Assembly (NCBI GenBank): GCA_016205975.1
Contig: JACQSK010000015.1
Coordinates: 10,624 to 74,623 of the forward strand
Direction: 5' to 3'
Length of the DNA stretch: 64,000 nucleotides
From: Candidatus Uhrbacteria bacterium
Lineage (GTDB): Bacteria > Patescibacteriota > Patescibacteriia > UBA9934 > GWF2-40-263
Positions 3,225-32,209 of this stretch are shown here, one piece after another. Position 1 is the stretch's first letter; every line of letters starts with the position of its first letter. The notes under the pieces were generated by a model that made no database searches, was not told the origin of the DNA, and saw nothing but the letters and a program-made list of their open reading frames with translations. The position numbers were made by a program, and so were the translations under genes.

Positions 3225-3500
3225 ATGTATCCTATTCCACGCACCTTTTCGACCAGGGACCTCCAGAGACAGTATCGTTCCATTATTGATTCAGCCAAGC
3301 AGACAAAAGAGGCCGTCGTGCTCATCAACAACAGCACACCCGAGGCGGTCTTGCTGGATGTAGAAACGTACAACCAGCTTGTCCAGGACGACTATGCGTG
3401 GGACGAATCTTTTGTTCTCAAACAAGTAGCGCAGGCAAACAAATCATCGCGCGGAGGCAAATCCAAAAAACTGACCTCCTGGGGCGATCTTGACGACTAA
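3225..3500 (+). CDS. Phd/YefM-family type II antitoxin
   Basis: N-terminal pattern RTFSTRDLQRQYRSIIDSAKQTKEAVVLINNSTPEAVLLDVETYNQL matches the Phd/YefM fold. Sits 4 nt upstream of a RelE-like toxin gene. Confidence 0.7.
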   Translation: MYPIPRTFSTRDLQRQYRSIIDSAKQTKEAVVLINNSTPEAVLLDVETYNQLVQDDYAWDESFVLKQVAQANKSSRGGKSKKLTSWGDLDD

Positions 3501-3503
3501 GCT

Positions 3504-3773
3504 ATGCCGGTCGTCATTCTATACACGCCGGAGTTTAAACGTGATTACAAAAAACTTTCAGGAGCGTTGCAAGAGTTGCTTAAGAAAAAAGGACGCGTTT
3601 TTGAGATCGAGCCATTTCATCCACTCCTGCGCACGCACAAACTTTCAGGGAAACTCCGTGACCTCTGGTCATTTTCTTTGGATTATCGCTGTCGCGTGAT
3701 TTTTCATTTTCGAGGTCAGGGTGAAGTTGAACTCCTGCGCGTTGGCGACCATTCGATTTATCGAAAGAAGTAG
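3504..3773 (+). CDS. RelE/YafQ-family mRNA-interferase toxin (paralog 1)
   Basis: HKLSGKLRDLWSFSLDYRCRVIFH...LLRVGDHSIY signature. Paralogous to the ORFs at 27645 and 31949. Confidence 0.75.
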   Translation: MPVVILYTPEFKRDYKKLSGALQELLKKKGRVFEIEPFHPLLRTHKLSGKLRDLWSFSLDYRCRVIFHFRGQGEVELLRVGDHSIYRKK

Positions 3774-3814
3774 CGGACGAAAGACGACAGGATCAACTGA
3801 AAGCGGGAGATTTT

Positions 3815-4378
3815 TTGGCCACGCGTGCGTCTCTTGCTTTTTTTTCAGATGAGGTGTATCACAGGCTCACAGAGTCATCCTCTCTGTTCCACCATTTCCT
3901 TCCGAGGTCAACCGTGTCTTCACAAGACGACCGTGTGTCACCAGACACGTGGCTCGATCGGTGGGGACACCCTATCCTCTGGATGGGTCCCTACATCGCG
4001 ATCGTGTCACTCCTTGCTTGGACCCCGCGCTTGGCGCCTCTGCTCCTGGGCGTCGAGCTCGTGCAGTTCACCGTGCACGTGCAAGCTCGCCATGTGTCCC
4101 ACCCCATGGCTCCTGTCTCGTTTCTGTTCATGGCCCTAGGAGCCGCGATCGTCGTCCTGGGATCGCTCGTGTTCCCTCTCATCTGGGCGAGCGCCCTGCT
4201 CGTCGTGAGCCAGGTGCTGTTCAGCCAGAGCGTGCACGTGAACACCCATGGTCCCGCACCCCGATGGCTCTGGTACCAGCCCGTCATGTATACACTCGTC
4301 AGCCTCTACGCTCTTTGGGGCATGGCCGGCACGACCTACGTCCCTGGTCACCCATCCCTGCGAGGCTTCCTGCTCTAG
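3815..4378 (+). CDS. Possible small integral membrane protein (3-4 TM helices); coding status uncertain
   Basis: Only the C-terminal ~130 aa are hydrophobic. Very GC-rich region with several overlapping ORFs on both strands and no recognisable family. Confidence 0.2.
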   Translation: MATRASLAFFSDEVYHRLTESSSLFHHFLPRSTVSSQDDRVSPDTWLDRWGHPILWMGPYIAIVSLLAWTPRLAPLLLGVELVQFTVHVQARHVSHPMAPVSFLFMALGAAIVVLGSLVFPLIWASALLVVSQVLFSQSVHVNTHGPAPRWLWYQPVMYTLVSLYALWGMAGTTYVPGHPSLRGFLL

Positions 4379-4423
4379 ACCGAGCAGGATTTTTTTGCAA
4401 AATGGAAACGGAAGCCCTATCCT

Positions 4424-5653
4424 ATGAGCACTATGCCAACGCCATTTGAACACGCCATGCATCAGCTCGCACGCGCCGCGTCGCTCGCTTCCTTCTCTCA
4501 AGATTTTCTTGAACGCGTCGCGCACCCCAACCGTCAGATCCGTGTTTCGATTCCGGTGAAGATGGACGACGGAAGCCTGAAGGTCTATGAGGGGTATCGC
4601 GTGCAGTTCAACAATGCGCGCGGGCCCTACAAGGGCGGCATCCGCTATCATCAAGAGACCGACATCGAGGAAGTGAAGGCGCTCGCGTTTTGGATGGCGC
4701 TCAAGTGCGCGGTCGTGAATATTCCGATGGGTGGAGGCAAGGGCGGCGTGAATGTAGATCCCAAGGGGCTCTCCAAGCGCGAGCTCGAGGCACTGTCGCG
4801 AGGGTGGATGCGCGCGCTCGTGGACGTCGTGGGACCGCAAAAAGATGTCCCCGCGCCCGACGTGAACACGACGCCTGAGATCATGGCGTGGATGGCCGAC
4901 GAGTTTGGCAAGGCAACAGGGGATACAAGCGGCGCGGTCATCACGGGGAAACCGTTGGAGGCTGGAGGGTCAGAAGGCCGTGGGACCGCGACCGCGCAAG
5001 GAGGGTTCTATGTGTTTGAAGCTCTGAGGGAGAGGCTCGGCCTTCCGGCGTCGTGTCGCGTGGCGATTCATGGATTCGGCAACGCGGGAGAGCACGCGGC
5101 TGACATTTGGAGCAAGGCCGGGCGCAAGGTCGTGGCCGTGTCGGACTCGAAGGCGTGCGTGCGTAACGATGATGGTTTGGATGTCGTCGCACTTGCTCGG
5201 CATAAAAAAGCAACAGGATCTGTCGGCGGGTTTGTCGGCGCCACGACGCTCGCTCCGGAAGAGGTCTTGTACGTCCCATGCGACCTCTTGATTCCAGCCG
5301 CTCTAGAAAATCAAATCCGCGCGGACAACGTTGCGCGTATCCAAGCCAAAGCGATCCTTGAACTTGCCAATGGTCCCACGACTCCGGAGGCAGACGACGC
5401 GCTTTTCGCGCGCGGTGTTCCCGTGGTGCCCGACATTCTGGCCAACTCCGGCGGCGTGACCGTCTCGACGTTTGAGTGGGAACAGAATCTCAAGGGCGAG
5501 CACTGGAGCGAGGCAGATGTTTTTGAGAAGTTAAAGGCGATCATGGTGCGCGAGGCCGACGGCATTTTTGTTCGCGCGCAGTCGCTCCAGAGTGATCTGC
5601 GCCGCGCCGCGTTCGTGGTTGCCCTTGAGCGGATCGAGTCGGCTATGGTTTAA
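4424..5653 (+). CDS. gdh: Glutamate dehydrogenase (Glu/Leu/Phe/Val dehydrogenase family)
   Basis: KGGIRYH and PMGGGKGG motifs and a C-terminal NAD(P) Rossmann fold. Confidence 0.9.
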   Translation: MSTMPTPFEHAMHQLARAASLASFSQDFLERVAHPNRQIRVSIPVKMDDGSLKVYEGYRVQFNNARGPYKGGIRYHQETDIEEVKALAFWMALKCAVVNIPMGGGKGGVNVDPKGLSKRELEALSRGWMRALVDVVGPQKDVPAPDVNTTPEIMAWMADEFGKATGDTSGAVITGKPLEAGGSEGRGTATAQGGFYVFEALRERLGLPASCRVAIHGFGNAGEHAADIWSKAGRKVVAVSDSKACVRNDDGLDVVALARHKKATGSVGGFVGATTLAPEEVLYVPCDLLIPAALENQIRADNVARIQAKAILELANGPTTPEADDALFARGVPVVPDILANSGGVTVSTFEWEQNLKGEHWSEADVFEKLKAIMVREADGIFVRAQSLQSDLRRAAFVVALERIESAMV

Positions 5654-5663
5654 TTGATCCGTT

Positions 5664-7979
5664 ATGCCCTACAACCATCAAGAGATTGAAAAGAAATGGC
5701 AGGATCGCTGGGAAGCGAGCGGGATTTTTCATGCGCATGACGGAGGCGAGAAACAGAAGTTTTACTGTTTGATCGAGTTTCCCTATCCGTCTGGTGCCGG
5801 CCTGCACATCGGGCATCCGCGCAGTTACACGGCGCTCGATGTCGTTGCGCGCAAGAGGCGTCATCAGGGGTATAACGTCTTGTACCCGATCGGTTGGGAT
5901 GCGTTTGGACTCCCGACCGAAAATTACGCGATCAAGCACAAACGCAAGCCGCAGGAGGTGACGCTCGAGAACGTCGCAACGTTCAGGCGCCAGCTCCAGT
6001 CGCTCGGGTTTTCTTTTGACTGGTCACGCGAAGTGAACACGACGGATCCCAGCTATTACAAGTGGACGCAGTGGATGTTCCTTCAGTTTTTCAAGGCCGG
6101 ACTTGCGTACAAGTCCAAACAGCCGATCAACTGGTGCCTGTCGTGCAAGATCGGACTCGCGAACGAGGAAGTCGTAAACGGGAAGTGCGAGCGCTGCGGG
6201 GGAGAGACGGAGAAGCGCGACAAGGAGCAGTGGATGATCGCGATTACGAAGTATGCGGAGCGACTCCTTGAAGATCTCGACGGGGTTGACTATCTCGAGA
6301 AGATCAAAACGCAGCAGCGCAACTGGATTGGAAAGAGCGAAGGCGCGGAGATTGATTTTGTGCTCAATGTCCCAGGGCAAGAATCAGGCAAACAGAAGGT
6401 GACCGTCTTTACCACGCGCGCGGACACTATTTTTGGCGCGACGTTCTTGGTGATCTCGCCGGAGGTCGCCAAGCAGTGGATCGATGTCGGTTGGGTGGCG
6501 CCAGCGTCCGTGCGTGAGTATGTGCAGGAGGCGCTCTCTCGCGCCGAGATGGAACGTGCAGCCGAAGGCAAAGAGAAGACAGGCGTGGACACTCAAATCG
6601 TCGCGATCCATCCTGCCAACGGAAAAGCAATCCCCGTGTGGGTCGCCGATTACGTCTTAGGGAGTTACGGGACAGGGGCGATCATGGCTGTCCCTCAGCA
6701 CGACGAGCGTGACCGAGCGTTTGCCGAGCAGTTCCGTTTACCGATCGCGGACGAGCCGCTTGCGGCTGTTGATGAAGTCGTGGAGAAAGTCGGTGGAAAA
6801 AAAACCGTGAAGTACAAACTCCGCGACTGGGTGTTTTCGCGACAGCGCTACTGGGGTGAACCGATCCCGCTTGTGTGGTGTGAGAAACATCAGTGGGTCG
6901 CGGTACCCGATGAGCAACTTCCTGTTGTCCTGCCAGAGGTCGAGAAGTACGAACCGACCGATACGGGAGAGTCACCGCTTGCCGCGATGACCGACTGGGT
7001 CAACACGACCTGTCCGACGTGTGGCGGGCCAGCCCGTCGAGAGACGGACACGATGCCTAACTGGGCTGGTTCGAGTTGGTACTTTTTGCGCTACATCGAT
7101 GCACACAACGATCAGGCGTTCGCGTCGCGGGACAAGCTCAAGTATTGGATGCCGGTGGATCTCTACAACGGCGGCAATGAGCACACGACACTTCACCTGC
7201 TGTACTCCCGATTCTGGAACAAGTTTTTATTCGACCAAGGCCACGTCCCAACCAGTGAGCCGTATGCGCGCCGCCACAGCCACGGACTCGTGCTTGCAAG
7301 CGACGGGATCAAGATGAGCAAGTCCAAAGGAAACGGTGTGGATCCAGATGAGATCATCACCCAGTATGGCGCCGACGCCCTGCGCATGTATATCCTTTTC
7401 ATGGGTCCGTTTGAGGAGCCGGTGCCGTGGAGTTTGAACGGGCTTATCGGCGTGCGCCGATTTTTGGATAAGGTTGAGCGGTATGTACAAGCATGGGTCC
7501 CATCGGACCATGATGGCCTATCTGGCGCAGGTCTCTTAGAGCGCAGTCTTAAGAAAATCTCCGACGACATCGAAAGTTTTAAGTTCAACACAGCCGTGTC
7601 CGCCTTCATGTCGCTCTTCAATGCGATCGCCGTGAGTCACATCACGCGCGAGCAGCTCAAAAAGATTCTCGTCGTGCTTGGACCGTTCGCTCCGCACCTC
7701 GCCAACGAGTGCTGGGAGAAAATAGGCGAGGGCGGACTCGTCGAGGAACAGGCCTGGCCAGAGTTCGACGCGCGCCTTTTGGTTCAAGACGAAATCGAAA
7801 TAGCGGTGCAGGTGAACGGCAAAGCGCGCGCAACGATTCAAATCTCACCCAACGCTGACGAAGCCGCGGCCAAACAACTCGCGCTCGCACAAGAGAAAGT
7901 CCAGAAGCACCTGGAAGGCAGGGAGATCGTGCAGATCATCTACGTGCCAGGTCGGATTTTGAACATCGTCATCAAGTGA
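5664..7979 (+). CDS. leuS: Leucyl-tRNA synthetase (compact, 771 aa)
   Basis: HIGH-type motif (HIGHPRSY) and KMSKS motif. Overall class I LeuRS architecture. Confidence 0.92.
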   Translation: MPYNHQEIEKKWQDRWEASGIFHAHDGGEKQKFYCLIEFPYPSGAGLHIGHPRSYTALDVVARKRRHQGYNVLYPIGWDAFGLPTENYAIKHKRKPQEVTLENVATFRRQLQSLGFSFDWSREVNTTDPSYYKWTQWMFLQFFKAGLAYKSKQPINWCLSCKIGLANEEVVNGKCERCGGETEKRDKEQWMIAITKYAERLLEDLDGVDYLEKIKTQQRNWIGKSEGAEIDFVLNVPGQESGKQKVTVFTTRADTIFGATFLVISPEVAKQWIDVGWVAPASVREYVQEALSRAEMERAAEGKEKTGVDTQIVAIHPANGKAIPVWVADYVLGSYGTGAIMAVPQHDERDRAFAEQFRLPIADEPLAAVDEVVEKVGGKKTVKYKLRDWVFSRQRYWGEPIPLVWCEKHQWVAVPDEQLPVVLPEVEKYEPTDTGESPLAAMTDWVNTTCPTCGGPARRETDTMPNWAGSSWYFLRYIDAHNDQAFASRDKLKYWMPVDLYNGGNEHTTLHLLYSRFWNKFLFDQGHVPTSEPYARRHSHGLVLASDGIKMSKSKGNGVDPDEIITQYGADALRMYILFMGPFEEPVPWSLNGLIGVRRFLDKVERYVQAWVPSDHDGLSGAGLLERSLKKISDDIESFKFNTAVSAFMSLFNAIAVSHITREQLKKILVVLGPFAPHLANECWEKIGEGGLVEEQAWPEFDARLLVQDEIEIAVQVNGKARATIQISPNADEAAAKQLALAQEKVQKHLEGREIVQIIYVPGRILNIVIK

Positions 7980-7980
7980 T

Positions 7981-8589
7981 ATGTCTGAGCAGCCACGCTC
8001 GTTTCAGGAATACCATACGAAGCGGTTTGCCGCGCCCGAGCTTCCATTGCCGGAGCGCCAACCGGTCCGCGAGGAGTCGGATGGAATGAAGGTCTTTCAG
8101 GCGCATCCTCCTGAGGCGTATATCGCGCATCTTGAGCGCGTGCAGGGAGAAGGGGCGGTTGAGGCCTTTCAACAAGTTCTCTCCGTGGCTCGTAGCATTC
8201 AAGGAGCCGGTGGGCGGGCGCTGCTTGTCGGTGGGTCTGTTCGCGACGAGGTGCTCGGGATGCCTTCAAAAGATTTCGACATCGAAGTCTACGGGATCGA
8301 GCCGTCCAAGCTTGAGTTGCTTTTGGCGCGATGTGGCCGCGTGGATTCTGTGGGCCGGGCGTTCGGGATCCTCAAGTTGGTTTCAACGGATGGGTTAGAT
8401 TTGGACTTCTCCATTCCCCGTCGTGATTCTAAAGTGGCGGAAGGTCATAAGGGTTTTGACGTGAACATGGATCCAGACATGAGTATCCTGGAAGCCGCCC
8501 GAAGGAGAGACTTAAGGGGTTCGTCATCGCCATCTCATGTACGCCGCGCTCTGCCACGATCTCGGCAAACCTCTCACGACGAAGTTTGA
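7981..8589 (+). CDS. cca: CCA tRNA nucleotidyltransferase, head (pol-beta nucleotidyltransferase) domain ORF
   Basis: GGSVRDEVLG...DFDIEV nucleotidyltransferase motif and RRD motif, preceded by a ~70-aa N-terminal extension. The ORF runs out of homology right after RRDL. Confidence 0.65.
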   Translation: MSEQPRSFQEYHTKRFAAPELPLPERQPVREESDGMKVFQAHPPEAYIAHLERVQGEGAVEAFQQVLSVARSIQGAGGRALLVGGSVRDEVLGMPSKDFDIEVYGIEPSKLELLLARCGRVDSVGRAFGILKLVSTDGLDLDFSIPRRDSKVAEGHKGFDVNMDPDMSILEAARRRDLRGSSSPSHVRRALPRSRQTSHDEV

Positions 8590-9175
8590 AGACGGACGAT
8601 TGCGTTCCAAGGCGCACGAGCCTGCCGGGGAGGAGCCGACCCGAACGCTATTGGCGCGGTTGGGAGTGAAAAAAGAAGAGATCGATGGGATCGTTGGTTT
8701 GGTGAAAGAACATCTCTGGCCGGGAGTGACCTACCGCGCGTTCCAGAAAGGGGAAAAGGTGACCGAAGGCGCTTTCCATCGTCTTGCCAAGCGTCTTGCT
8801 CCCGCCACCATTGAAGATCTGACGTACGTCATGGAGGCGGACGCCGGAGGACGCGGCCCGTTTCTTCATCCAGATTTGCCAGACCAACTTCTGCTGCCGT
8901 TCCCAGACCAAGCGGGCGCGTGGACGCGAGAGCAAGCTCGAGCGTTTGGCGTAGACCGGACAAAGCCGGCGCCCGTCCTTCAGGGTCGAGATCTATTAGG
9001 ACTCGGGTTGAAAGCGGGAACGGCGTTTGGTGAGATCATCGCCCTTGCAGAAGAGCTTCGCGATCGTGGGGTCACAAGAGAACAGATTTTGTTGCGGCTC
9101 GATGGGGTGGCTGGGAGTGACGAAGCGAAACAACGCTTAACGAAAGAGTATGAGCAAAGTGCCGATCAAGGCTAA
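8537..9175 (+). CDS. cca: CCA-enzyme HD (phosphohydrolase) domain ORF; different frame, overlaps the head ORF by 53 nt
   Basis: Starts at the LCHDLGKP HD motif and aligns to the C-terminal half of class II CCA enzymes. Frame 2 opens at a TAA at 8513-8515. Confidence 0.6.
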   Translation: MYAALCHDLGKPLTTKFEDGRLRSKAHEPAGEEPTRTLLARLGVKKEEIDGIVGLVKEHLWPGVTYRAFQKGEKVTEGAFHRLAKRLAPATIEDLTYVMEADAGGRGPFLHPDLPDQLLLPFPDQAGAWTREQARAFGVDRTKPAPVLQGRDLLGLGLKAGTAFGEIIALAEELRDRGVTREQILLRLDGVAGSDEAKQRLTKEYEQSADQG

Positions 9176-9719
9176 AAAAGTTTTTGACGGCGTGATCTTC
9201 GACGTCTACCAGTGGCCTCAGAAAATGTTCGACGGGACTGAGCAGACGTTCGAGCGGCTCAAACGTCAGGACACGGCAGAGATGATCGTCACCCAGGGTG
9301 ATCGCATCTTGATTCAGGCGGAAGAGCAGCCGGATCGCGCGCCGTTCCTCACGTTTCCCGGCGGGAGAGTCGAGGACAGGGAAGAGCCGCTTGCGGCCGC
9401 CAAGCGGGAACTCCTGGAGGAGACGGGTTTTGTTTCAGATGCATGGACATTGCATCAGGCCGTGATGCCCTTGGTAAAAATCGACTGGACGGTTTATCTG
9501 TTCATCGCCCAAGAAGCGCGTCAGGTGCAAGAACCGCATCTGGACGCGGGGGAAAAGATTTCTGTGCGGTGGGTGACGTTCGATGCATTTCTCGATCTCG
9601 CTGACTCGGGGGAGCTCACGTACTTTCTCGAACCGTTCCGCACCGAGCTCGTCCGCGCCAAGTATCACGCCCCGAGTCGGGAGGCGTTGCGGCGAAAATT
9701 ATTCACAGAATCGCCTTGA
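9150..9719 (+). CDS. NUDIX hydrolase
   Basis: Nudix box GGRVEDREEPLAAAKRELLEETG. Confidence 0.8.
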   Translation: MSKVPIKAKKVFDGVIFDVYQWPQKMFDGTEQTFERLKRQDTAEMIVTQGDRILIQAEEQPDRAPFLTFPGGRVEDREEPLAAAKRELLEETGFVSDAWTLHQAVMPLVKIDWTVYLFIAQEARQVQEPHLDAGEKISVRWVTFDAFLDLADSGELTYFLEPFRTELVRAKYHAPSREALRRKLFTESP

Positions 9720-9855
9720 CGCTCAATTCGTTTTGTGATGGAATAGGTCTAGGCAGGTGAGGGTTTCCCTTCATTCTGTTGTCAAATAAATTCCTCCAAC
9801 TAAAAGGCCGCTTGGTCTTTGGCGTTGGGGGTTTTTATTTATCCCGGATCAACAC

Positions 9856-9931
9856 GGGCTCGTGGAGGTAATGGTAACCTCACCTGCTTTGACAACAGAA
9901 GTTGCCGGTTCGAATCCGGTCGGGTCCACCA
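9856..9931 (+). tRNA. tRNA-like gene with encoded CCA; canonical acceptor, D and T arms but a weak anticodon stem (nominal anticodon loop UUUGACA)
   Basis: Acceptor GGGCTCG/CGGGTCC (two G.U pairs), D stem GAGG/CCTC, T arm GCCGG-TTCGAAT-CCGGT, then discriminator A + CCA. The anticodon stem has C.A mismatches at both ends, so identity is unresolved. Confidence 0.5.
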
Positions 9932-9943
9932 TGATCCGGGTCC

Positions 9944-9994
9944 ACACCAAATCCGTCTCACGCGGACGGTTTGGTGTTTCTGGAGTTTTCTTTC
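9944..9994 (+). terminator. Intrinsic terminator after the tRNA-like gene
   Basis: 13-bp stem ACACCAAATCCGTC/GACGGTTTGGTGT, followed by a tandemly duplicated 14-nt T-rich unit TTTCTGGAGTTTTC. Confidence 0.55.
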
Positions 9995-10032
9995 TGGAGT
10001 TTTCTTTTCGACTTTGTTAAGCTCTCCCCACT

Positions 10033-13712: not shown

Positions 13713-13744
13713 TGGAGTCGTGATAGTTTTTGTGCAACAAATCT

Positions 13745-22004: not shown

Positions 22005-22028
22005 ATGGTATCCATTCATGCGAAAAGA

Positions 22029-22062: not shown

Positions 22063-22073
22063 GTCCGTGGACG

Positions 22074-22931: not shown

Positions 22932-23048
22932 GCCTCAGGATAAGGCCAAGTCGAGGTCAGGGTAGCCAAAACCTCGAAAGACGTCAAGATCACCACTCAG
23001 TGTTATCCTCACTTCCATTCCACCATTCTTGACCTTTTTTGACTCTCC

Positions 23049-23077
23049 GTGATAATCTCCAGGCGCTTTTCTTTTCG
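23049..23077 (+). promoter_or_regulatory. Candidate sigma70-like promoter of the str operon (TTGACC-17-GATAAT)
   Basis: Hexamers and spacing seen directly, 35 nt upstream of the rpsL ATG. Confidence 0.35.
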
Positions 23078-23111
23078 ACTCCTTATTTCCAACCTCCAAC
23101 AACCACTATTT

Positions 23112-23540: not shown

Positions 23541-23686
23541 CAGAGATCTCAGTAGCAAGTAGCTAGTAGTTGGAAGCAAGTATACTTGCTACACGCTACT
23601 AACTACCGACGACCTTATTTATTAACATCAACCGTCGGAGTACCTCACGCATGGGGGAAGCCAACCGATGAGATAACGTCAAAATT
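23541..23686 (+). promoter_or_regulatory. Nested palindromic structure in the rpsL-rpsG spacer; possible S7 autoregulatory target
   Basis: GTAGCAAGTA...TACTTGCTAC 10-bp inverted repeat, a 16-nt perfect palindrome AGCAAGTATACTTGCT, and a GTAGTT/AACTAC pair, all seen directly. The S7 role is by analogy with E. coli str mRNA feedback. Confidence 0.35.
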
Positions 23687-24157
23687 ATGCGAGGTAAGCA
23701 AGCGCCAAAGCGGGAGATCGATCCCGACCCGAAGTTCGGAAACATTCATGTCGCCAAATTGATTAACAGCATCATGCACGACGGAAAGAAATCCGTCGCG
23801 CGTTCGGTTGTCTACGACGCCTTTGATCTGATGGCCGAGAAGACGAAACTCGAACCGCTCGAGGTCTTCGAGCGCGCCATCAAGAACGTCATGCCCAGCT
23901 TGGAAGTGAAGAGCCGCCGCGTGGGCGGAGCCAACTACCAGGTGCCAATGTCCGTGCGCGGCGAGCGCCGGTATCTGTTGTCGTTCCGTTGGATCATCAC
24001 CGCCGCGCGTTCCAAGAAAGGCCGTGGGATGGCGGAACGCCTGTCCGATGAACTCGTCGCCGCTTCCAATAACGAAGGCGATGCGGTGAAAAAGAAACTC
24101 GACGTGCAGCGCATGGCAGAAGCCAACCGCGCGTTTGCTCATTTTGCTAAGCGCTAG
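23687..24157 (+). CDS. rpsG: 30S ribosomal protein S7
   Basis: Full-length S7 homology. Confidence 0.95.
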
Positions 24158-24160
24158 CCT

Positions 24161-26254
24161 ATGCCACGAGAATATCCGCTTGCCGCCACAAGGAACTTTG
24201 GAATCTTCGCGCATATCGACGCGGGGAAGACGACCGTGTCTGAGCGCATTCTTTTTTACACGGGAAAAAAGCACAAGATCGGCGAGGTACACGAAGGCGC
24301 CGCCACCATGGACTGGATGGAACAGGAGCGCGAGCGCGGCATCACCATCACCGCGGCGGCGACGACCTGCTTTTGGAAAGACCATCGCTTGAACCTGATC
24401 GATACGCCTGGGCACATTGACTTTACCGTTGAGGTGAAGCGCTCCATGCGCGTGCTGGATGGCGGCGTGGCTGTGTTCGACGGCGTCGCGGGCGTGGAAC
24501 CGCAGTCGGAAACCAACTGGCGCTACGCGGACGACTTCAAGGTCCCGCGCATTGCCTTTGTGAACAAGCTCGACCGCACGGGCGCAGATTTTTATAAGGA
24601 CCTCGACTCCATCCACCGCCGACTGACCAAAAATGCGCATCCGATCCAGCTTCCCATAGGCACAGAAGCAAACTTTGCCGGCGTGATTGACTTGCTGCAC
24701 ATGAAGGCGCACATCTACAAAGATGATTTGGGGAAAGACGTGGAGGTCGGGGAGATTCCCGCCGAGTACCTGGACCGCGCCAAGGAATATCGCGCCAAGC
24801 TCGTGGAGGCCGTTGCCGAGAACGACGAGGCGCTCATGAACAAGTATGTGGGTGGCGAGGAGATCAGCATTGAAGAGATGAAGCCGGTGATCCGCAAGGC
24901 AACCATTGCCAACACATTCGTGCCGGTCATGTGCGGTTCGGCTTTGAAGAACAAAGGCGTGCAGCTCTTGCTCGATGCCGTCGTGGACTATCTGCCCAAT
25001 CCGCTGGAGGTGCCTCCTGTGATCGGACATGATCCAGACGACATGGAGAAAGAACTCGTGCGCCATGCCTCTGACGAAGAGCCGTTTTCGGCGCTCGCCT
25101 TCAAGATCGCGGCAGACCCGTTCGTAGGTAAGCTCGCGTTCTTTCGCGTGTACTCCGGCATGGTCAAGGCGGGTTCGTATATTTTGAACTCCTCCACGGG
25201 AAACAAGGAACGCGTCGGCCGCATCGTGCGCCTGCACGCCAACACGCGCGAGGAAGTGGGAGAGGTCTATGCCGGGGAGATCGCCGCCATGGTGGGCTTG
25301 AAGGAAACCTTCACCGGTCACACGCTGTGCGATCCAGATCACCCAATCGTGCTGGAGGCGATCAGCTTTCCCGAGCCGGTTATTTCCATTGCGATTGAAC
25401 CCAAGACCAAAGCCGACCAGGAAAAGATGGCCATCGCCCTGCAGAAGTTGTCTGAGGAAGATCCGACGTTCCGCGTGCGGACGGATGAGGAGACCAACCA
25501 GGTCATCATCTCGGGCATGGGCGAGCTGCACTTGGATATTATCGTCGATCGCATGAAGCGCGAGTTTTCGGTCGAGTGCAACGTCGGCCAGCCGCAGGTC
25601 AGCTACCGTGAGACCGTGAAAGGAAGCGCGGAAGGGGAAGGCAAGTACATCCGTCAGACCGGCGGGCGAGGACAGTATGGCCACTGTTTGGTGCGTATTG
25701 AAAAGCTGCCGCCTGGTTCCGGCGTCCAGTTTGAAGAGGAGGTCAAGGGCGGCACGATTCCTCGCGAGTACTTCAACCCGATCGAGAAAGGCATTCGCGA
25801 GGCGGCTGATCGCGGGGTCATGGCCGGGTATCCTCTGCTGGATTTGAAAGTGACGCTCACCGACGGGTCCTACCACGAGGTTGACTCCTCAGAAGCGGCC
25901 TTCAAGATCGCCGGGTCCATGGCGTTCCAGGACGCGGCAAAGAAAGCCGGCGTGGATCTCTTGGAGCCGATGATGAAAGCGGAAGTGTCCACGCCAGAGG
26001 ACTTCATGGGATCGGTCGTGGGAGATTTGAATGCCAAGCGCGGACAGATTCAAGAGATGTCGGACCGCAGCGGCGCCAAGATCATCACCGCGTTCGTGCC
26101 ACTGGCTGAGATGTTCGGCTATGCGACGAGCTTGCGCTCGATGACGCAGGGCCGTGCCAGCTATTCGATGGAGTTTGATCATTACGATGTGGTGCCTGGG
26201 AACGTCGCGAAAGAGATCGTTGAGAAACGCGGAAGCGGACCCACGCGAGCGTAA
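24161..26254 (+). CDS. fusA: Elongation factor G
   Basis: [10 protein letters not shown]1 motif, DTPGHIDF motif, 697 aa. Confidence 0.95.
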
Positions 26255-26261
26255 AATACAA

Positions 26262-26285
26262 AACAGAGCTTCGGCTCTGTTTTTG
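26262..26285 (+). terminator. Intrinsic terminator immediately after fusA
   Basis: AACAGAGC-TTCG-GCTCTGTT hairpin followed by TTTT, starting 8 nt after the stop. Confidence 0.6.
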
Positions 26286-26308
26286 GTTGTGCTAAAATCT
26301 ACCCGTCT

Positions 26309-27340
26309 ATGAAAACTGTTCCGAAAAGCGTCCTTGGCGCCTACGCGATTGGGGCCGTCCAGTCGATCACGCAGGTGACGGCAGGGCTGGTCCACGAGAC
26401 GTTCGCGGTCAAGACCGATCAGGGACGCTACATCATCCAAAAACTCCATCCAGTGCTCGCGAGCAAAGCGATCGGAGAGGACTTCTTCGCCGTGACCGAG
26501 TTTTTGCGATCGCAGAAATTCTTGTCGCCTGTGTGCGTCCGCACAAAAAAGGGAGAGGTGCTTTCCGTGGACCAGACAGACGTCTGGCGGATGCAGACGC
26601 TGTTGCCTGGACGGACGATTCACGTAATCGAGAGTCTTATCATGGCTCGAGAGGCTGGGCAGATCTATGCCAGGTTCCACAAAGTCATGGACAAGATGGA
26701 CTATCGGTTTAAGTCAAAGAAGATTTTGCACGAGACGGAGAAGGTGTACGAGGCACTAGGGAAGGCGACAAAGGGGGCAGAGGGCGCAAAGGGAGCTGAG
26801 GTCGCACAGGAGGTTGCGTTCATCCGTCGGAATCTGCCGGAGTTTTTCCTACCTGCGGATCTCCCGCTGCGCGTCATCCATGGTGATCCAAAGATTTCCA
26901 ATATTTTGTTTGACCGCCACGGCAGGGCCAAGGCCATTATTGATCTTGATACCTGCAATCGTCGTCCGCTCCTTGTAGAACTTGGGGACGCGTTCCGTTC
27001 GTGGTGCGGTGGGCGAGAGGACGATCCGAGCAATACGTTCTCGCTTTCACGATTCCGCGCTGCGTGGAAGGGCTATGAGGCTGGCGCACAGGGATTTCTG
27101 ACCCGACGCGAGCGTCAGCTCGTGCCCCGCGCGATCGGTACGATTACGCTTGAGCTCGCTGCACGCTTCCTTACCGATTACTTTACCGACAACTACTTCG
27201 GTTGGGATGCCTCTCGTTATCCGTCTCGAGCTTCTCATAATCTCGCACGAGCCCGCGGCCAAATCGCAGAGTTTAAGGATTATCAAAAGAAGCTTCCGCA
27301 GATCAAGAAGATCGTGGAAGTACAGCCCACGGTAAGATGA
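26309..27340 (+). CDS. Phosphotransferase-family (APH/choline-kinase-like) small-molecule or protein kinase
   Basis: Brenner motif HGDPKISNILF and IDLDTCNRRP (DFG-equivalent) in a 343-aa protein. Confidence 0.7.
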   Translation: MKTVPKSVLGAYAIGAVQSITQVTAGLVHETFAVKTDQGRYIIQKLHPVLASKAIGEDFFAVTEFLRSQKFLSPVCVRTKKGEVLSVDQTDVWRMQTLLPGRTIHVIESLIMAREAGQIYARFHKVMDKMDYRFKSKKILHETEKVYEALGKATKGAEGAKGAEVAQEVAFIRRNLPEFFLPADLPLRVIHGDPKISNILFDRHGRAKAIIDLDTCNRRPLLVELGDAFRSWCGGREDDPSNTFSLSRFRAAWKGYEAGAQGFLTRRERQLVPRAIGTITLELAARFLTDYFTDNYFGWDASRYPSRASHNLARARGQIAEFKDYQKKLPQIKKIVEVQPTVR

Positions 27341-27362
27341 ATATCTACACGTGCGGTTAATG

Positions 27363-27391
27363 TTGACGGTAGGTGAAAGATATCGTATGAT
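27363..27391 (+). promoter_or_regulatory. Sigma70-like promoter (TTGACG-17-TATGAT) for TA module 2 and the downstream genes
   Basis: Hexamers and spacing seen directly. A palindromic ATGATAA...TTAATCAT candidate operator lies between -10 and the ATG. Confidence 0.4.
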
Positions 27392-27418
27392 AATTTCATA
27401 CTTAATCATCACTACCCT

Positions 27419-27640
27419 ATGTCCACCATCTCCGTGCCGCTTACAGGACCTCTCGAGCAGTTTATCGATGACATGATTCGTCGGGGGGCTGCGCCTAATA
27501 AAGCCGAAGTTGTCCGACAGGCGCTTGTTCGTTTTGCAGAGGATCAGGCGGTTGAGGCGGTTCTTCGTTCTGAACAAGAAGCGCGAGATGGAAAAGTTTT
27601 GCGCGGCGATTTACGTGACCTCATAAAACAGGTGACGTAG
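27419..27640 (+). CDS. Ribbon-helix-helix (ParD/CopG-like) type II antitoxin
   Basis: Small RHH-like protein sitting 4 nt upstream of a RelE-family toxin. Confidence 0.65.
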   Translation: MSTISVPLTGPLEQFIDDMIRRGAAPNKAEVVRQALVRFAEDQAVEAVLRSEQEARDGKVLRGDLRDLIKQVT

Positions 27641-27644
27641 ACTT

Positions 27645-27908
27645 ATGGACGTTTCCTACACGCCGTCCTTTATTCGCATGTTGAAATCGCTCCCAGACGT
27701 ACTGATTGATGAAGCGTTAGAGAAAATAGCATTGTTTCGAGATCCGACGAACCACAAACAACTGAAAGTTCACAAGCTCAGTGGTCGCTTGAAAGGTCGT
27801 TACAGTTTTTCCGTGAACTACAAAATTCGAATCGTTTTTAATTATCTCCCTACAGATCCTAAACAAGCACGACTCGACGCGATAGGTGATCATCGTGTTT
27901 ATGATTAG
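27645..27908 (+). CDS. RelE/YafQ-family toxin (paralog 2)
   Basis: HKLSGRLKGRYSFSVNYKIRIVF...AIGDHRVYD. Confidence 0.75.
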   Translation: MDVSYTPSFIRMLKSLPDVLIDEALEKIALFRDPTNHKQLKVHKLSGRLKGRYSFSVNYKIRIVFNYLPTDPKQARLDAIGDHRVYD

Positions 27909-27940
27909 GATGAGTCTCCAAACACAACTCTGCAAATGCG

Positions 27941-29749
27941 GTGCGATGTGATATGAGCATCTTCTCTCGCGGTACAGATCATCGTCTTTATCTATTCTGC
28001 ACTCTGTTGGTGCTGATTTTTTTGTTGGGCATAGTGATCGGTGGTTCAACGCAAGAAAAGGGAGCCTCTCAAACCGAGCTGGTAAGTGGTCCGGTTTTTT
28101 CGTATGGTTACGCCGCCGCGTCGTTTTATGAGAGAGCCAACGGGACGGCAGAGGCGATCGGGAGAACGAGAGCGCACTCGGCGATTGTGGCACATCATCT
28201 TCTCGTCGCAGACAAGATCGCGCAAGTGTTTGCTGCGCTGGGAGACGGGAAGGAGAAGACGGTCGTAATTCTTTCGCCGAATCATTTTTTTGCTGGACGT
28301 TCTGCCCTGCAGACGACGACAGGATCCTGGACAACGCCGTTTGGGGAGGTGGAGGTTGATCGTGAGAGTGTCGGCGCGCTCCTGGCGGCCGTGCCGGAGC
28401 TGTCCCTCGAGCCTGGGACGTTCAAAGAGGAACACGGCGTGGCTTCGCTCACGCCATTTGTGAAAACGTGGTTTCCCGAATCTAAGCTCGTGCCGCTTGT
28501 GATTCATGACAAGGCAACCGATGAAGAAGTCGCGGCGCTCGCTCGAGCGATTGAAGACGAACTTCCCGACGCTCTCGTGATTGCCTCGATCGACATGTCG
28601 CATTATCTTCCCGAGCACATTCAAGAGTATCACGATGCGGTGACGATGCGATCGATCGCGCAGGGCGCGGCGGACTTCGATCTCGAGATCGATGCCAATG
28701 ATGTGTTGCAGACACTGTTTGAAGTGAATCGTCTGCGCGGGGACCAGCAGTGGGTACAGACGCATCACGGAAGCTCGCTCGCGATGGAGGCAACGGACGA
28801 CTGGCGAGAGAATACCAGTCACATCCTTGGATATTTTATGGATGGCGAACCCGTGCCGGATCCGTTCGTGAGTTTGCAGTTTGTCGGCGACGTCATGCTC
28901 GATCGCGGCGTTCGTATCAAGATGGAAGAACACGGAGCGGCTTATCCATGGGAGAACGTCCAGCGTTTCCTGCAAGGATCGCATCTGCGCATTGCCAATC
29001 TTGAAGGGACGGTGAGTGAGAAGGAGATCCCCATGACCTACGAGTCGCCGTTCACCTTCACCTTTGCGCCGGAGTTCATAGAGGCGATGAAGCCGTTCAT
29101 CGACGCGGTGAGTCTTGCAAATAATCACTCAGACGACTTTGGCGCAGAAGGTGAACAGGAGACGCGGGATCGCCTCGCCATCGATCTCGGGATCGATTGG
29201 TTCGGAGGCTCCTCACGTTCTGATGATATTTACCGATACGACCTCTGTGACCAATCGGGGTGCTCTCTTGGGATCAGTCTGATCGGCTTCAATCAGTTCG
29301 GATTCCCGATTCCCGACCTGACCCCCATTATTGAGGCTGAGGATCAGGCTGGGCGGTTTGTCATCGTCGTGCCGCACTGGGGCGAGGAATATGTCACGGA
29401 GCCACAGGAGAGCCAGCGCGAGCTGGCGACGGCGATGATCGCGGCTGGCGCGGACTTCATCGTCGGCGCGCACCCCCACGTCGTCCAGGGGATCGAAGTC
29501 ATTGACAACGTCCCTGTCGTTTACTCGCTCGGGAACTTTGTCTTCGATCAAGGCTTTGATGAGACCGCGCGTGGCCTGACGCTTGGTGTGATTCTGGACG
29601 ATAGAAGTGCTACACTTTACCTGTCACCGATCTCGACCCTGGACGGACAGCCAACGCCCATGTCAGACGAGGAAGCCGCACAGCTGCTTCTTGATCGAAA
29701 CATTTCAGCAAACTCTCTAACCATTTTTTATGATGAACCTTCATCCTGA
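27941..29749 (+). CDS. Membrane-anchored fusion protein: MEMO1-family domain (res ~60-300) + CapA/PGA_cap metallophosphatase-like domain (res ~305-602)
   Basis: N-terminal signal-anchor TM helix. MEMO1 landmarks: AIVAHHLL, ILSPNHF, EEHGVASLTPF, PLVIHD, IASIDMSHY. CapA landmarks: FVGDVMLDRG, ANLEG, SLANNHSDDFG, VVPHWGEEY, GADFIVGAHPHVVQG, YSLGNFVFDQ. Confidence 0.8.
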   Translation: MRCDMSIFSRGTDHRLYLFCTLLVLIFLLGIVIGGSTQEKGASQTELVSGPVFSYGYAAASFYERANGTAEAIGRTRAHSAIVAHHLLVADKIAQVFAALGDGKEKTVVILSPNHFFAGRSALQTTTGSWTTPFGEVEVDRESVGALLAAVPELSLEPGTFKEEHGVASLTPFVKTWFPESKLVPLVIHDKATDEEVAALARAIEDELPDALVIASIDMSHYLPEHIQEYHDAVTMRSIAQGAADFDLEIDANDVLQTLFEVNRLRGDQQWVQTHHGSSLAMEATDDWRENTSHILGYFMDGEPVPDPFVSLQFVGDVMLDRGVRIKMEEHGAAYPWENVQRFLQGSHLRIANLEGTVSEKEIPMTYESPFTFTFAPEFIEAMKPFIDAVSLANNHSDDFGAEGEQETRDRLAIDLGIDWFGGSSRSDDIYRYDLCDQSGCSLGISLIGFNQFGFPIPDLTPIIEAEDQAGRFVIVVPHWGEEYVTEPQESQRELATAMIAAGADFIVGAHPHVVQGIEVIDNVPVVYSLGNFVFDQGFDETARGLTLGVILDDRSATLYLSPISTLDGQPTPMSDEEAAQLLLDRNISANSLTIFYDEPSS

Positions 29750-31622
29750 GGACAATGAGTCTCGATCTGTGCGACCATGGCTTCTCTATTTGATCGGCGG
29801 AGCTCTTATCGTCGTCGCGTTTGCGACGGGCGTTTTTTTCTCTGATGTGATGGAGAGGCGTGCTGGCGATGTGTACCCGATTGTCGACGAAGAAGCCCTC
29901 GAGGAGGAGGGAGCTCCAGGATTCACTCAGGACGAGGAAGGAGAACCCGTCAAGTACACCGCCACCGGGACGCTCACGATCGATTGGATCGCTCCTGACG
30001 AGCAGCCGAGTTATCCGGACGATGGCGTGTTCGATCGAGCGATGTGCTACGACGTGTACGATGGAGAGATGGGCAATAGCTGTGCCGAAGACCCCGACGG
30101 AGGGCCTCGTTGGTCCTACAAACTTGGAACCGTGGAGGGCGGCGCCTATGACGGACGAGATGTGGTCATGACAAGCGTGCCGATGTCCGGCATGGGAGTT
30201 TATTACGAGACGTTCTATCTTCTCTATGATCCTGCGAGAGAACAGGCGCCGGTGATTATTGATTCCCAGACACGAGGGGAAGGGTGGACTCTTGGCGACG
30301 GGAACGCGATCACCGCTACGGAGCTGATCGGCGAGACTCGTCTTGCAAAACTTTCAGGCTATGTGATCGACACCGAAGCGCTGATTCCCGAGCTTGCGAT
30401 CGACAGGGCGCTGGTGGAACCACCACCCGGGAACGAATTTGCTTTTGTCGGCTCTTGGAGGCGTTTGTATTCTGACGAGGCGATTTCGCTCACAGGGGCA
30501 ACCGCGTCGACGACGCTTTCAGATGGGAGGACTTTGTATCTCTGGGAGCCGAAAGTGGACGCCGATGGAATGATCCTGGAAGGTCAGACAGGGGTCGGTA
30601 AGAACTTGTTTTACCTGGTCGATGAAGATGGTCGGGTGCTGTTCTATGATCTCATCGTTCCGTTTTTTGCTAACGAGGTCGATCAGGAAGGATATACAAA
30701 CCAGGCCATAGGCATTCCCAACGTGGAGTGGAAAGATGGATCGACCAACGACGCAACGTATCTGAAAGGGGACGTGGGTGGATGCGGGTTCACGACCGTG
30801 ACGCATGTCATCTCTCCTGCGGTTGTCACGTCTCTCGATTTGCAGTATGCCGGCGTAGGTGTCATGCCAGGAAGGGGAACGGAATACCCCGTGTACGAGC
30901 CCGAGAGCTACGAGAACGCGTATTACGAAGACGCGTTCAACGCCGTGACCTTTGGGGGCGAGGGCACAGAGCCCAAGACGTACGACGATTACTCTCATCC
31001 CTATTTTTACTTCCAGGATTCTTTTGGCCGATGGATCGAGTTCATGAGCAACGAGCTGATCCCACCGGTGGAATGTGGCAAGCCGGTGGTCTATCTCTAT
31101 CCTGAGCAGGAAACGGACCTGGAGGTCTTCGTGCATCCGCGCGGCGGGTTCTCCTCTACCGAGCCTGAGTACGGCGATGGGTGGGACGTGACGGCCTATC
31201 CCGACGGCCACCTTGTGAACCGAGCGGACGGCATCGGCTATCCGTACCTGTTCTGGGAAGGTCGTGGTGGACTGTATGCGCCGCCGAGTTCGTATTGGGT
31301 CATGGCTCGGTCGGATGTTGAATCATTCTTGAGAGCCACGCTCACAAAAATGAATCTGAGCGGAAACGAAACGGACGACTTCATCGAGTTCTGGCTGCCG
31401 CGCATGCAAGAGGCGTCGTACTACAAGATCGGTTTCCACGACACGCGGGTGATGGATGCACTTGCTCCACTCAGCTTCTCGGTCGCACCTGATCACGTCT
31501 TCCGCATCCTGATGGATTACTCCGAGCTTCAAACTCCCGAGCCGTCCAAGCCACCGGCACGTCTGCCTCGCGCCAACCGCGAAGGGTTCGATGTGCTTGA
31601 ATGGGGCGGCGTGCTTCGCTAG
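29730..31622 (+). CDS. Hypothetical exported/membrane-anchored protein (630 aa) translationally coupled to the MEMO1-CapA gene
   Basis: N-terminal TM anchor and an acidic, aromatic-rich extracytoplasmic body. 20-nt overlap with the upstream gene. No family recognised. Confidence 0.6.
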   Translation: MMNLHPEDNESRSVRPWLLYLIGGALIVVAFATGVFFSDVMERRAGDVYPIVDEEALEEEGAPGFTQDEEGEPVKYTATGTLTIDWIAPDEQPSYPDDGVFDRAMCYDVYDGEMGNSCAEDPDGGPRWSYKLGTVEGGAYDGRDVVMTSVPMSGMGVYYETFYLLYDPAREQAPVIIDSQTRGEGWTLGDGNAITATELIGETRLAKLSGYVIDTEALIPELAIDRALVEPPPGNEFAFVGSWRRLYSDEAISLTGATASTTLSDGRTLYLWEPKVDADGMILEGQTGVGKNLFYLVDEDGRVLFYDLIVPFFANEVDQEGYTNQAIGIPNVEWKDGSTNDATYLKGDVGGCGFTTVTHVISPAVVTSLDLQYAGVGVMPGRGTEYPVYEPESYENAYYEDAFNAVTFGGEGTEPKTYDDYSHPYFYFQDSFGRWIEFMSNELIPPVECGKPVVYLYPEQETDLEVFVHPRGGFSSTEPEYGDGWDVTAYPDGHLVNRADGIGYPYLFWEGRGGLYAPPSSYWVMARSDVESFLRATLTKMNLSGNETDDFIEFWLPRMQEASYYKIGFHDTRVMDALAPLSFSVAPDHVFRILMDYSELQTPEPSKPPARLPRANREGFDVLEWGGVLR

Positions 31623-31626
31623 ACAA

Positions 31627-31668
31627 ACAAAAAACACTCGGGTCAATGACTCGGGTGTTTTTTATGGA
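31627..31668 (+). terminator. Intrinsic terminator, which is also copy 1 of a 30-nt direct repeat: AAAAAACACTCGGGTCAATGACTCGGGTGTTTTTT
   Basis: 13-bp stem (with G.U pairs) plus U-run, 5 nt after the stop of the 630-aa gene. Near-identical copy at 32317-32355. Confidence 0.6.
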
Positions 31669-31725
31669 GCATTTGACCACTCGTCTTGAGGATGATAGAG
31701 TAACAAAAATTGTTACAGTTTATCT

Positions 31726-31944
31726 ATGCGCAACATCGTCAACATTTCCCTACCAGGCAGTCTTACAAAAGAAGTCGAACGTGGAGTCAAAGAATTCCAT
31801 TTTGCTTCCAAGAGTGAATTTTTTCGGCATCTGGTCCGAGAGTGGCTCACAGGACACTTGGTTTTGGACTTGGCTCAGAGTCGTCGTGAGTACGCCCAGG
31901 GGAAAGCCAAAGTTTTGTCGAACGTAAAAGATCTTTGGAAGTAG
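31726..31944 (+). CDS. Ribbon-helix-helix (CopG-like) antitoxin
   Basis: Small RHH protein sitting 4 nt upstream of a RelE paralog. Confidence 0.65.
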   Translation: MRNIVNISLPGSLTKEVERGVKEFHFASKSEFFRHLVREWLTGHLVLDLAQSRREYAQGKAKVLSNVKDLWK

Positions 31945-31948
31945 TGTT

Positions 31949-32209
31949 ATGGCGGAAGTTCTCTACACGCCGCATTTCAAGCGTGACGCAAAACGCTTGC
32001 CGGTTTCTCTGCGCAAACTTATTGAGGATCGGCTCAAGCGTTTCAAAACAGATCCGTTCGATCCCTTACTCAAGACTCACAAGTTAGACGGGAAGCTGCG
32101 CGGACACTGGTCGTTTTCCATCGACCACAAGATTCGTGCGATCTTTAGCATCGAGGACAAATCAGTGTTTGTCCTTCATGCGATCGGTGATCATTCCATC
32201 TACGATTAG
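31949..32209 (+). CDS. RelE/YafQ-family toxin (paralog 3)
   Basis: HKLDGKLRGHWSFSIDHKIRAIF...AIGDHSIYD. Confidence 0.75.
   Translation: MAEVLYTPHFKRDAKRLPVSLRKLIEDRLKRFKTDPFDPLLKTHKLDGKLRGHWSFSIDHKIRAIFSIEDKSVFVLHAIGDHSIYD

Follow-up and report, generated by a model that had tools for sequence, protein, structure and literature searches.

How did one stretch of DNA come to hold three related toxins, each preceded by an antitoxin of a different kind? The stretch analyzed here (the window) comprises 64,000 nucleotides (nt) of Candidatus Uhrbacteria, a member of the Patescibacteria or candidate phyla radiation (CPR), with a G+C content of 56.5%. Within it, three two-gene toxin–antitoxin (TA) modules encode RelE-type toxins (T1, T2, and T3) together with the antitoxins A1, A2, and A3. 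The reading that we regard as likely, with good confidence, is that these are anciently diverged and separately acquired modules with modular antitoxins. The six genes are:

3225–3500, plus strand: module 1 antitoxin A1, 91 amino acids (aa)
3504–3773, plus strand: module 1 toxin T1, 89 aa, 3 nt after A1
27419–27640, plus strand: module 2 antitoxin A2, 73 aa
27645–27908, plus strand: module 2 toxin T2, 87 aa, 4 nt after A2
31726–31944, plus strand: module 3 antitoxin A3, 72 aa
31949–32209, plus strand: module 3 toxin T3, 86 aa, 4 nt after A3

In all three modules the toxin gene lies 3–4 nt 3′ of a small antitoxin gene, and the three toxin open reading frames (ORFs) are intact. The toxin ORFs named in the original prediction, which was made from the sequence alone, all exist as given there, as do the antitoxin ORFs upstream of them.

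Relatedness and family placement of the toxins

In BLASTP comparisons, T1 and T3 share 50% identity (E 2e-30), T2 and T3 41% (E 1e-19), and T1 and T2 35% (E 4e-17), with T2 as the most divergent of the three. These E values are far beyond chance and bear out the earlier description of the toxins as clear paralogs. The identity to solved RelE, YoeB, YafQ, and HigB toxins is 16–25% vs 36–49% among T1, T2, and T3, so the three are closer to one another than to generic RelE members. Most of the core motif quoted in the original prediction is also common to them (HKL-x-G-x-L, SFS, R-x-x-F, and GDH-x-x-Y), while T1 carries RCR in place of the (K/R)IR that had been listed. On these alignments, T1, T2, and T3 are true paralogs within one distinct subfamily of the RelE superfamily.

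Placing this subfamily among the curated families is less straightforward. For TIGR02385 (RelE_StbE; cut-off 27.9 bits), T1 passes with 28.6 bits, and T3 (25.7) and T2 (14.2) fail. For PF06769 (YoeB; cut-off 27), it is T3 that passes with 28.3 bits; T1 fails with 14.7 bits and T2 gives no match. TIGR02116 (YoeB/Txe) yields scores of 35.1 and 23.7 bits and its cut-off of 51.8 is not reached, nor is that of PF15738 (YafQ_toxin; 30), where T1 scores 23.4 bits (E 7.5e-5), T3 27.2 bits, and T2 has no match. Scores of 17.9 and 21.4 bits for TIGR00053 (YafQ) fall far under its cut-off of 87.25. The toxins are thus in the RelE/ParE superfamily, not cleanly inside the curated YafQ, YoeB, or RelE/StbE families. 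Two features expected of the superfamily are present: a small (~85–95 aa) alpha/beta RelE fold, as modeled for T3, and a two-gene operon with the toxin directly after the antitoxin gene.

Toxin fold and putative activity

An AlphaFold2 model of T3, built on an alignment of 97 homologs, has the RelE/YafQ/YoeB fold with a mean predicted local distance difference test score (pLDDT) of 95.8. A Foldseek search with this model returned 42 PDB matches at E <= 1e-3, all of which are RelE, YoeB, YafQ, or HigB toxins with template modeling (TM) scores of 0.65–0.80. The leading matches, with TM scores of 0.70–0.80 at 16–25% identity, include Helicobacter pylori HP0894 (4lsy), Vibrio cholerae YafQ (9lew, TM 0.80), Escherichia coli YafQ, a Streptococcus pneumoniae YoeB-type toxin, E. 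coli YoeB (TM 0.75), and Mycobacterium tuberculosis RelK.

Seven columns are invariant in the 97 homologs: F10, H44, L46, G48, R63, H82, and Y85 (T3 numbering). In HMMER alignments to YoeB-type chains, H44 is aligned with the Glu of the K-P-E-P/K-L motif, and R63 with the Arg of E-H-R-L-V-Y; these two YoeB residues are the catalytic Glu46 and Arg65. H82 and Y85 presumably occupy, by position, the place where YoeB has His83-Tyr84 and YafQ has His87...Phe91. The invariance of H44, R63, H82, and Y85, combined with the match of the T3 model to YafQ and YoeB, makes it most likely that T1–T3 are ribosome-dependent mRNA endonucleases situated between the YafQ and YoeB families. His44, Arg63, His82, and Tyr85 would form the active site of such a YafQ/YoeB-type enzyme, and both its RNase activity and its toxicity are putative.

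RelE and ParE share one fold, and weak matches to the Pfam ParE_toxin family (T1 E 3e-4, T3 E 2e-3) would also be compatible with ParE-like gyrase poisons, or with catalytically dead remnants, rather than RNases. We consider this highly improbable. The His, Arg, His, and Tyr residues are invariant, the first two align with the catalytic positions of YoeB, and the top structural matches are YafQ, HP0894, and YoeB, not ParE. Moreover, the toxin ORFs are uninterrupted and have been conserved in many genomes.

Antitoxin heads

What, then, differs between the partners? The N-terminal parts of the antitoxins (the heads) were assigned with Pfam and NCBIfam. A1 is a Phd/YefM protein (PF02604, 32.0 bits vs a cut-off of 29.8, residues 7–59). 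Its orthologs at two loci of other genomes (L050 and L051) are annotated with PF02604, and A1 orthologs (79% and 56% identical) precede T1 orthologs in every case. A2 resembles ParD-like ribbon-helix-helix (RHH) proteins (TIGR02606, E 2.4e-7, 30.7 bits vs a cut-off of 46.2; ParD, 14.8 bits vs 21), and has a 96% identical ortholog at L029. A3 is of the CopG type of RHH protein (PF01402, RHH_1; E 1.4e-3, 18.9 bits vs a cut-off of 20.5). Close relatives of these two do pass the RHH cut-offs: the A3 ortholog from L007 reaches 32.7 bits for RHH_1, and a relative at L020 passes both RHH_1 (21.8 bits) and ParD (21.1 bits). The original assignment of A1 to Phd/YefM holds, and that of A2 and A3 to RHH is likely. 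The notion that the two RHH proteins are unrelated is not borne out: in a profile–profile comparison with hhalign, the A2-type family matches the A3-type family along 57 columns (probability 95%, E 2e-8), and, with the tails removed, the two types fall in a single BLAST cluster through intermediates. By these profile and cluster comparisons, the A2-type and A3-type antitoxins are homologous.

Partners of one toxin subfamily thus have different DNA-binding domains, and A1-T1 (Phd/YefM) compared with A2-T2 and A3-T3 (RHH) is an example of hybrid pairing. The head would act as a dimerizing, DNA-binding domain and probably as a repressor of its own operon, which would make the modules autoregulated.

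A C-terminal tail shared by antitoxins with different heads

Below the level of the heads, the C-terminal ends of the antitoxins resemble each other. The segments in question are:

3378–3497, plus strand: linker and tail of A1 (residues ~52–91, ...AWDESFVLKQVAQANKSSRGGKSKKLTSWGDLDD), the putative toxin-neutralizing segment
A1 C-terminus as aligned: ...QANKSSRGGKSKKLTSWGDLDD
A3 C-terminus as aligned: ...QSRREYAQGKAKVLSNVKDLWK, the tail ending ...LAQSRREYAQGKAKVLSNVKDLWK
A2 C-terminus as aligned: ...RSEQEARDGKVLRGDLRDLIKQVT, the tail ending ...VLRSEQEARDGKVLRGDLRDLIKQVT
C-terminus of the A1 ortholog at L052: ...QRSYQKGKAKVLKNWDDLDT, a near-copy of the A3 tail

The tail spans ~25–40 residues with a consensus close to E-x3-G-K-x-K-x-L-x3-DL. 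When profiles of the Phd-type and CopG-type antitoxins are compared, they match in the last 35 columns only (hhalign E 5.7e-5), and the string GKAKVL-x-N-x-x-DL is common to the A1-type and A3-type tails in orthologs. Tail-only local alignment gives z = 4.9 for A1 and A3 and z = 8.2 for the L052 ortholog and A3, and, outside the Phd type, it is CopG-type tails that the A1 tail matches best.

Hidden Markov models (HMMs) of tails from other genomes were also searched against all six-frame segments of the window, 969 in number. With an HMM of tails from antitoxins with a helical type of head (described below), built from other phyla and with no window sequence, A3 ranked first (E 0.033) and A2 second (E 0.057). 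With an HMM that combined CopG-type tails with those of a further type (VxLSxxEY), A3 again ranked first and was followed by A1, which matched end to end at the C-terminus. Over these searches the E values for A3 ranged from 9.6e-8 to 0.033.

The original prediction had each toxin paired with a different antitoxin and named, as an outcome that would count against it, antitoxins that prove homologous. The heads of A1 and the RHH pair do differ, while the RHH pair is homologous and the A1-type and A3-type proteins share their C-terminal ~35 residues, so that the prediction stands for the heads and not for the antitoxins as wholes. Read from these alignments, the swapped part is the N-terminal head and not the whole antitoxin. 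In the same terms, A1 is a chimera of a Phd/YefM head and a tail of the CopG-type RHH lineage (C-terminal ~35–40 residues). The tail probably wraps around the toxin and blocks it.

Heads, tails, and toxin clades across the family

To place the three modules in their family, relatives of the toxins were surveyed at 43 loci of GTDB genomes and 80 metagenome loci, the metagenome search being queried with a three-sequence alignment. A small ORF lies upstream at nearly every GTDB locus and at every metagenome locus with upstream room; thus, in ~120 loci of other genomes the toxin directly follows a small antitoxin gene. A tail of approximately the form E-x3-G-K-x-K-x-L-x3-DL is present at the C-terminus of the partner antitoxins at these loci. 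Moreover, a tail HMM built from GTDB sequences only scores 50 of 70 distinct metagenome upstream ORFs above the best of 1498 control segments.

With the tail removed, 115 distinct antitoxins could be grouped by head: 45 are RHH, 42 helical, 15 Phd, and 9 VxLSxxEY, leaving four singletons. Neither the helical nor the VxLSxxEY class, both from loci outside the window (L014–L049 and L073–L134), has a match in Pfam or NCBIfam. The helical head comprises ~45 residues with the motif ...L-(S/P)-x-E/D-D/E-Q/K...RL...RR and is found mostly in Cyanobacteria, Chloroflexota, and deltaproteobacterial groups. The 'VxLSxxEYxxL' heads come from Patescibacteria.

In a neighbor-joining tree of the toxins, the class of the partner tracks the clade of the toxin. 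Phd-partnered T1 relatives form the sister clade of the T3/CopG sub-clade, and toxins of the T2 clade in other genomes are partnered by ParD-type RHH antitoxins in every case. A second, separate Phd-partnered clade, from Chloroflexota, is placed among helical-partnered toxins, and the tails of its Phd antitoxins best match the tail of a singleton (L013) and helical-type tails. With the tree and the tail matches taken together, tail type follows toxin clade, not head type, and the antitoxins are modular, with a C-terminal segment that is conserved with the toxin whatever the head. In the simplest reading of these comparisons, toxin and tail form a co-evolving unit, and replacement of the head has taken place several times as the family diverged.

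A bolder version of this idea is that a portable unit of toxin and ~30-residue tail has had at least four heads grafted onto it repeatedly, and that co-resident modules may cross-neutralize each other as a small network. The latter is raised by the likeness of the A1 and A3 tails and by the identity of T1 and T3 (49%). We regard this version as unlikely.

Several observations weigh against the reading of one toxin subfamily with modular antitoxins. T2 reaches no curated family threshold in either Pfam or NCBIfam, and H82 and Y85 map to the C-terminal His and aromatic residue of YoeB and YafQ by position and invariance only. The A1 tail has an E value of only 0.0039 in its 969-segment search and is undetected among the same segments with the HMM of helical-type tails alone. 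The tail-only comparison of A2 and A3 gives z = 1.1, and the profile comparison of Phd-type with ParD-type antitoxins is weak (E 0.05); these modest statistics for single tails reflect the shortness of the segment. In addition, the toxin tree is a neighbor-joining tree of ~86-residue proteins with no support values, which makes the order of head replacements tentative.

Given a tail that is short and rich in charged residues, and the low values for A2–A3 and for Phd vs ParD, one might propose that the three antitoxins were recruited independently and that the likeness of their tails is convergence on one toxin surface or compositional chance. This proposal we consider very unlikely. The homology of A2-type and A3-type antitoxins spans the head, the linker, and the beginning of the tail; the GKAKVL-x-N-x-x-DL string is common to tails of A1-type and A3-type orthologs with z up to 8.2; the tails match in register, up to the C-terminus; and the tail HMM sets independent metagenome antitoxins apart from control segments, as described above. 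Collectively, these data favor modular antitoxins that share a tail.

Age of the modules and their insertion sites

When did the heads change, and did this happen here? Orthologs of the toxins in other Uhrbacteria are 79% (T1), 95% (T2), and 91% (T3) identical, vs 36–49% inside the window. These orthologs keep the type of partner: a 91-aa Phd protein for T1, a ParD-type RHH protein for T2, and a CopG-type RHH protein for T3. The T1 ortholog with 79% identity, at L050, is syntenic, in that part of the gene order around it is the same as in the window (IF2, thioredoxin, and TrxB upstream; Glu dehydrogenase and LeuRS downstream).

Modules 2 and 3 lie in the region from EF-G to EF-Tu, which was compared in four relatives via homologs of a 630-aa gene adjoining module 3. 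The T2 slot (window 26309–29749, compared with L053 1–5020, L055 2196–5008, and L057 2080–4910) is situated between a gene for an APH-family kinase and a Memo/PGA_cap gene. It holds A2-T2 in the window, whereas in L055 and L057 only 5 nt separate the two flanking genes and the slot is closed; in L053 it contains DUF433, a metallo-beta-lactamase-fold gene, DUF6629, a 64-aa ORF with AbiEii, and RibD_C. The T3 slot is empty in L057, holds a different RHH and RelE/ParE pair in L055, and in L053 carries A3-T3 orthologs together with a 303-aa zinc-ribbon gene. Taking both slots into account, the EF-G to EF-Tu stretch is one into which accessory genes have been inserted.

The existence elsewhere of closer relatives with the same partners, combined with empty T2 and T3 slots in related Uhrbacteria, indicates that the swaps are ancient and that the modules arrived separately. 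Three old, distinct lineages would have entered variable intergenic slots independently, and would not be duplicates made in this genome. The original prediction had spoken of antitoxin swapping within one 30-kb stretch, and as a description of local events this can no longer be maintained. One might argue for it from the fact that the toxins belong to one subfamily and are encoded by a single strand over no more than 29 kb, as expected if one module had been duplicated inside the stretch and the copies had then gained new antitoxins in place. With each toxin far closer to its orthologs than to its neighbors, each ortholog accompanied by the same type of partner, the T1 locus syntenic in a relative, and the T2 and T3 slots empty in related genomes, we consider such a duplication extremely unlikely, and duplication within this genome was rejected as the origin of the modules.

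The boundaries of the T3 slot are marked by repeats, and one end of the insert retains part of a gene:

31625–31662, unstranded: hairpin copy 1, a 38-nt palindromic, terminator-like sequence immediately 5′ of module 3
32223–32311, plus strand: remnant of a zinc-ribbon gene, its first ~25–30 codons (window MPPEDRASFCPSCGYPAHAGHAPKC vs MPIEHGSQSCPSCGYPAHAGHAPSC in L053, where the full length is 303 aa)
32312–32349, unstranded: hairpin copy 2, terminator-like on the plus strand, which closes the module 3 insert

The two hairpins that bracket module 3 are 89% identical and 687 nt apart. The empty slot of L057 has a single hairpin (6938–6972), whereas two are present where the slot is filled: in L053 (6884–6920 and 8478–8516) they flank A3-T3 and the 303-aa gene, and in L055 (6925–6955 and 7510–7545) the different RHH/RelE pair. 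The T3 slot looks like a point of recurrent insertion, with duplication of the terminator as the outcome. Modules 1 and 2 were not seen to be flanked by convincing repeats. A further possibility, which we regard as unlikely, is that modules of this kind are brought into CPR genomes as cassettes with terminator hairpins at their borders, in slots between convergent transcription units.

The ORF of 121 aa at 32223–32588, which follows T3, is not a real gene. It consists of the ~25-codon zinc-ribbon start and a remainder that runs through the hairpin and a conserved noncoding block, and is a deletion remnant.

Expression signals and a conserved noncoding block

Promoter-like and operator-like sequences upstream of the antitoxin genes are as follows, the promoters being matches to the consensus only:

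3188–3216, plus strand: module 1 sigma-70-like promoter, TTGACA-17-TAATAT, 10/12 matches
27363–27391, plus strand: module 2 sigma-70-like promoter, TTGACG-17-TATGAT, 10/12 matches
31673–31701, plus strand: module 3 sigma-70-like promoter, TTGACC-17-TAGAGT, with a TG extension
31700–31716, unstranded: perfect palindrome GTAACAAAAATTGTTAC with 7-nt arms, between the −10 element and the A3 start

The −10-like element of module 1 ends 8 nt 5′ of the A1 start codon, and for this reason the A1-T1 transcript may be leaderless or nearly so. The palindrome upstream of A3, first spotted by eye and then confirmed, occurs only once in the window (0 occurrences expected by chance) and is conserved in L053; it is a reasonable candidate for the operator of the RHH antitoxin. 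A search with a seed of 6 and a minimum length of 8 detected no inverted repeats upstream of A1 and A2.

Hairpin copy 2 is adjoined by a noncoding block of ~200–250 nt (window ~32350–32560, minus strand), which is conserved in four Uhrbacteria in which the flanking proteins are just 53–70% identical. In L057 the block (6935–7166) has, on the minus strand, a promoter-like site (7166 to 7138) and a terminator (6971 to 6942). These two elements suggest a candidate gene for a small RNA, convergent with the 630-aa gene. RNAalifold found a few compensatory pairs in the block, and the single-sequence z score is −2.8 in L057 and −0.3 in the window. Rfam gave no match at E <= 1 in 32200–32700; a tRNA-Ser is the sole Rfam match in the window.

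Other toxin–antitoxin genes in the window

Two further loci, both on the plus strand, encode TA-like proteins:

52356–52667, plus strand: Gp49/HigB-like toxin (PF05973, E 1.7e-21)
52678–52968, plus strand: HTH_3 antitoxin (PF01381, E 4e-15), which forms a toxin-first module with the preceding gene
59667–60086, plus strand: PIN-domain (VapC-like) gene (PF01850, E 5e-14)

The match of the PIN gene to the NCBIfam VapC model (E 5e-4) is far under the cut-off. The only ORF upstream of it, at 59494–59661, encodes a very basic protein of 55 aa that has no match in Pfam or NCBIfam and ends 5 nt before the PIN ATG; the longest PIN ORF begins at TTG 59604 and overlaps it. Of the five TA loci counted originally, four are modules (those with T1, T2, and T3, and the HigB-like/HTH pair at 52356–52968), and the PIN gene lacks a recognizable antitoxin. 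The window thus contains four confirmed modules and one possible one.

A 137-aa ORF at 32637–33050 has a weakly Phd/YefM-like N-terminus (PF02604 E 2e-3, under the cut-off), an acidic C-terminal half, and no adjacent toxin gene. It was considered as a sixth, orphan Phd-like antitoxin and set aside, as it is probably a conserved gene instead: in L053, L055, and L057, the corresponding place ahead of EF-Tu is taken by a gene of similar size (141–158 aa). The L053 counterpart starts with the same residues (MSNHLQRIL), and homology is seen for this copy only.

Comparison with known systems

The present findings leave the understanding of TA systems unchanged and would not surprise a specialist, since a RelE-type toxin with a Phd or RHH antitoxin is already textbook knowledge. 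PMC4803016, which cites Leplae 2011 and Arbing 2010, treats hybrid pairing of toxin and antitoxin superfamilies as established, with YefM-YoeB as the standard example. For an RHH antitoxin, PMC12301738 reports that the C-terminus of RelB is needed to suppress the toxin. A literature search on TA systems in Patescibacteria gave nothing specific. What the window offers is a compact natural experiment, with three lineages of one toxin subfamily in one genome, and it provides defined constructs with which to address the determinants of cognate specificity and possible cross-talk between related modules of the same cell. The window also indicates that the streamlined genomes of Patescibacteria keep several such modules, in variable slots inside an otherwise conserved region with translation-factor and ribosomal-protein genes.

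Three groups of known systems are relevant here. DinJ-YafQ and HP0895-HP0894 resemble T1–T3 in the size of the toxin (~90 aa), the His in H-x-L-x-G, and the C-terminal G-x-H...aromatic. As in modules 2 and 3, the upstream antitoxin has an RHH head and a C-terminal toxin-binding region (binding being predicted in the present case). The differences are an identity of 16–24%, YafQ cut-offs that are not reached, and an invariant Arg63 in T1–T3, as in YoeB and RelE.

The pairing of a Phd antitoxin with a toxin of the RelE superfamily in YefM-YoeB (E. coli and Staphylococcus aureus) and M. tuberculosis RelJK is repeated in module 1. Similarities to these systems also extend to T3, which passes PF06769, has H44 and R63 on the YoeB Glu and Arg, and gives TM scores of 0.75–0.79. 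However, the first catalytic position is His in T1–T3 and Glu in YoeB, and the YoeB threshold is passed by T3, whose partner is RHH, whereas the Phd-partnered T1 fails it (14.7 bits). In this context, A1 looks less like a YefM ortholog than like a chimera of separate origin, because its tail resembles those of RHH antitoxins of the same toxin family, with which it was compared.

RelBE (E. coli and archaeal) has an RHH antitoxin, as in modules 2 and 3; ribosome-dependent cleavage of mRNA is the expected activity here as well, and T1 passes TIGR02385. The structural match is weaker than to YafQ and YoeB (4fxe, E 1e-3). Moreover, RelE catalysis uses Lys, Arg, and Tyr and is not known to involve a His, and so differs from the proposed His-containing set of T1–T3. 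By analogy with these systems, modules 2 and 3 would be expected to work like DinJ-YafQ or RelBE, and module 1 like YefM-YoeB.

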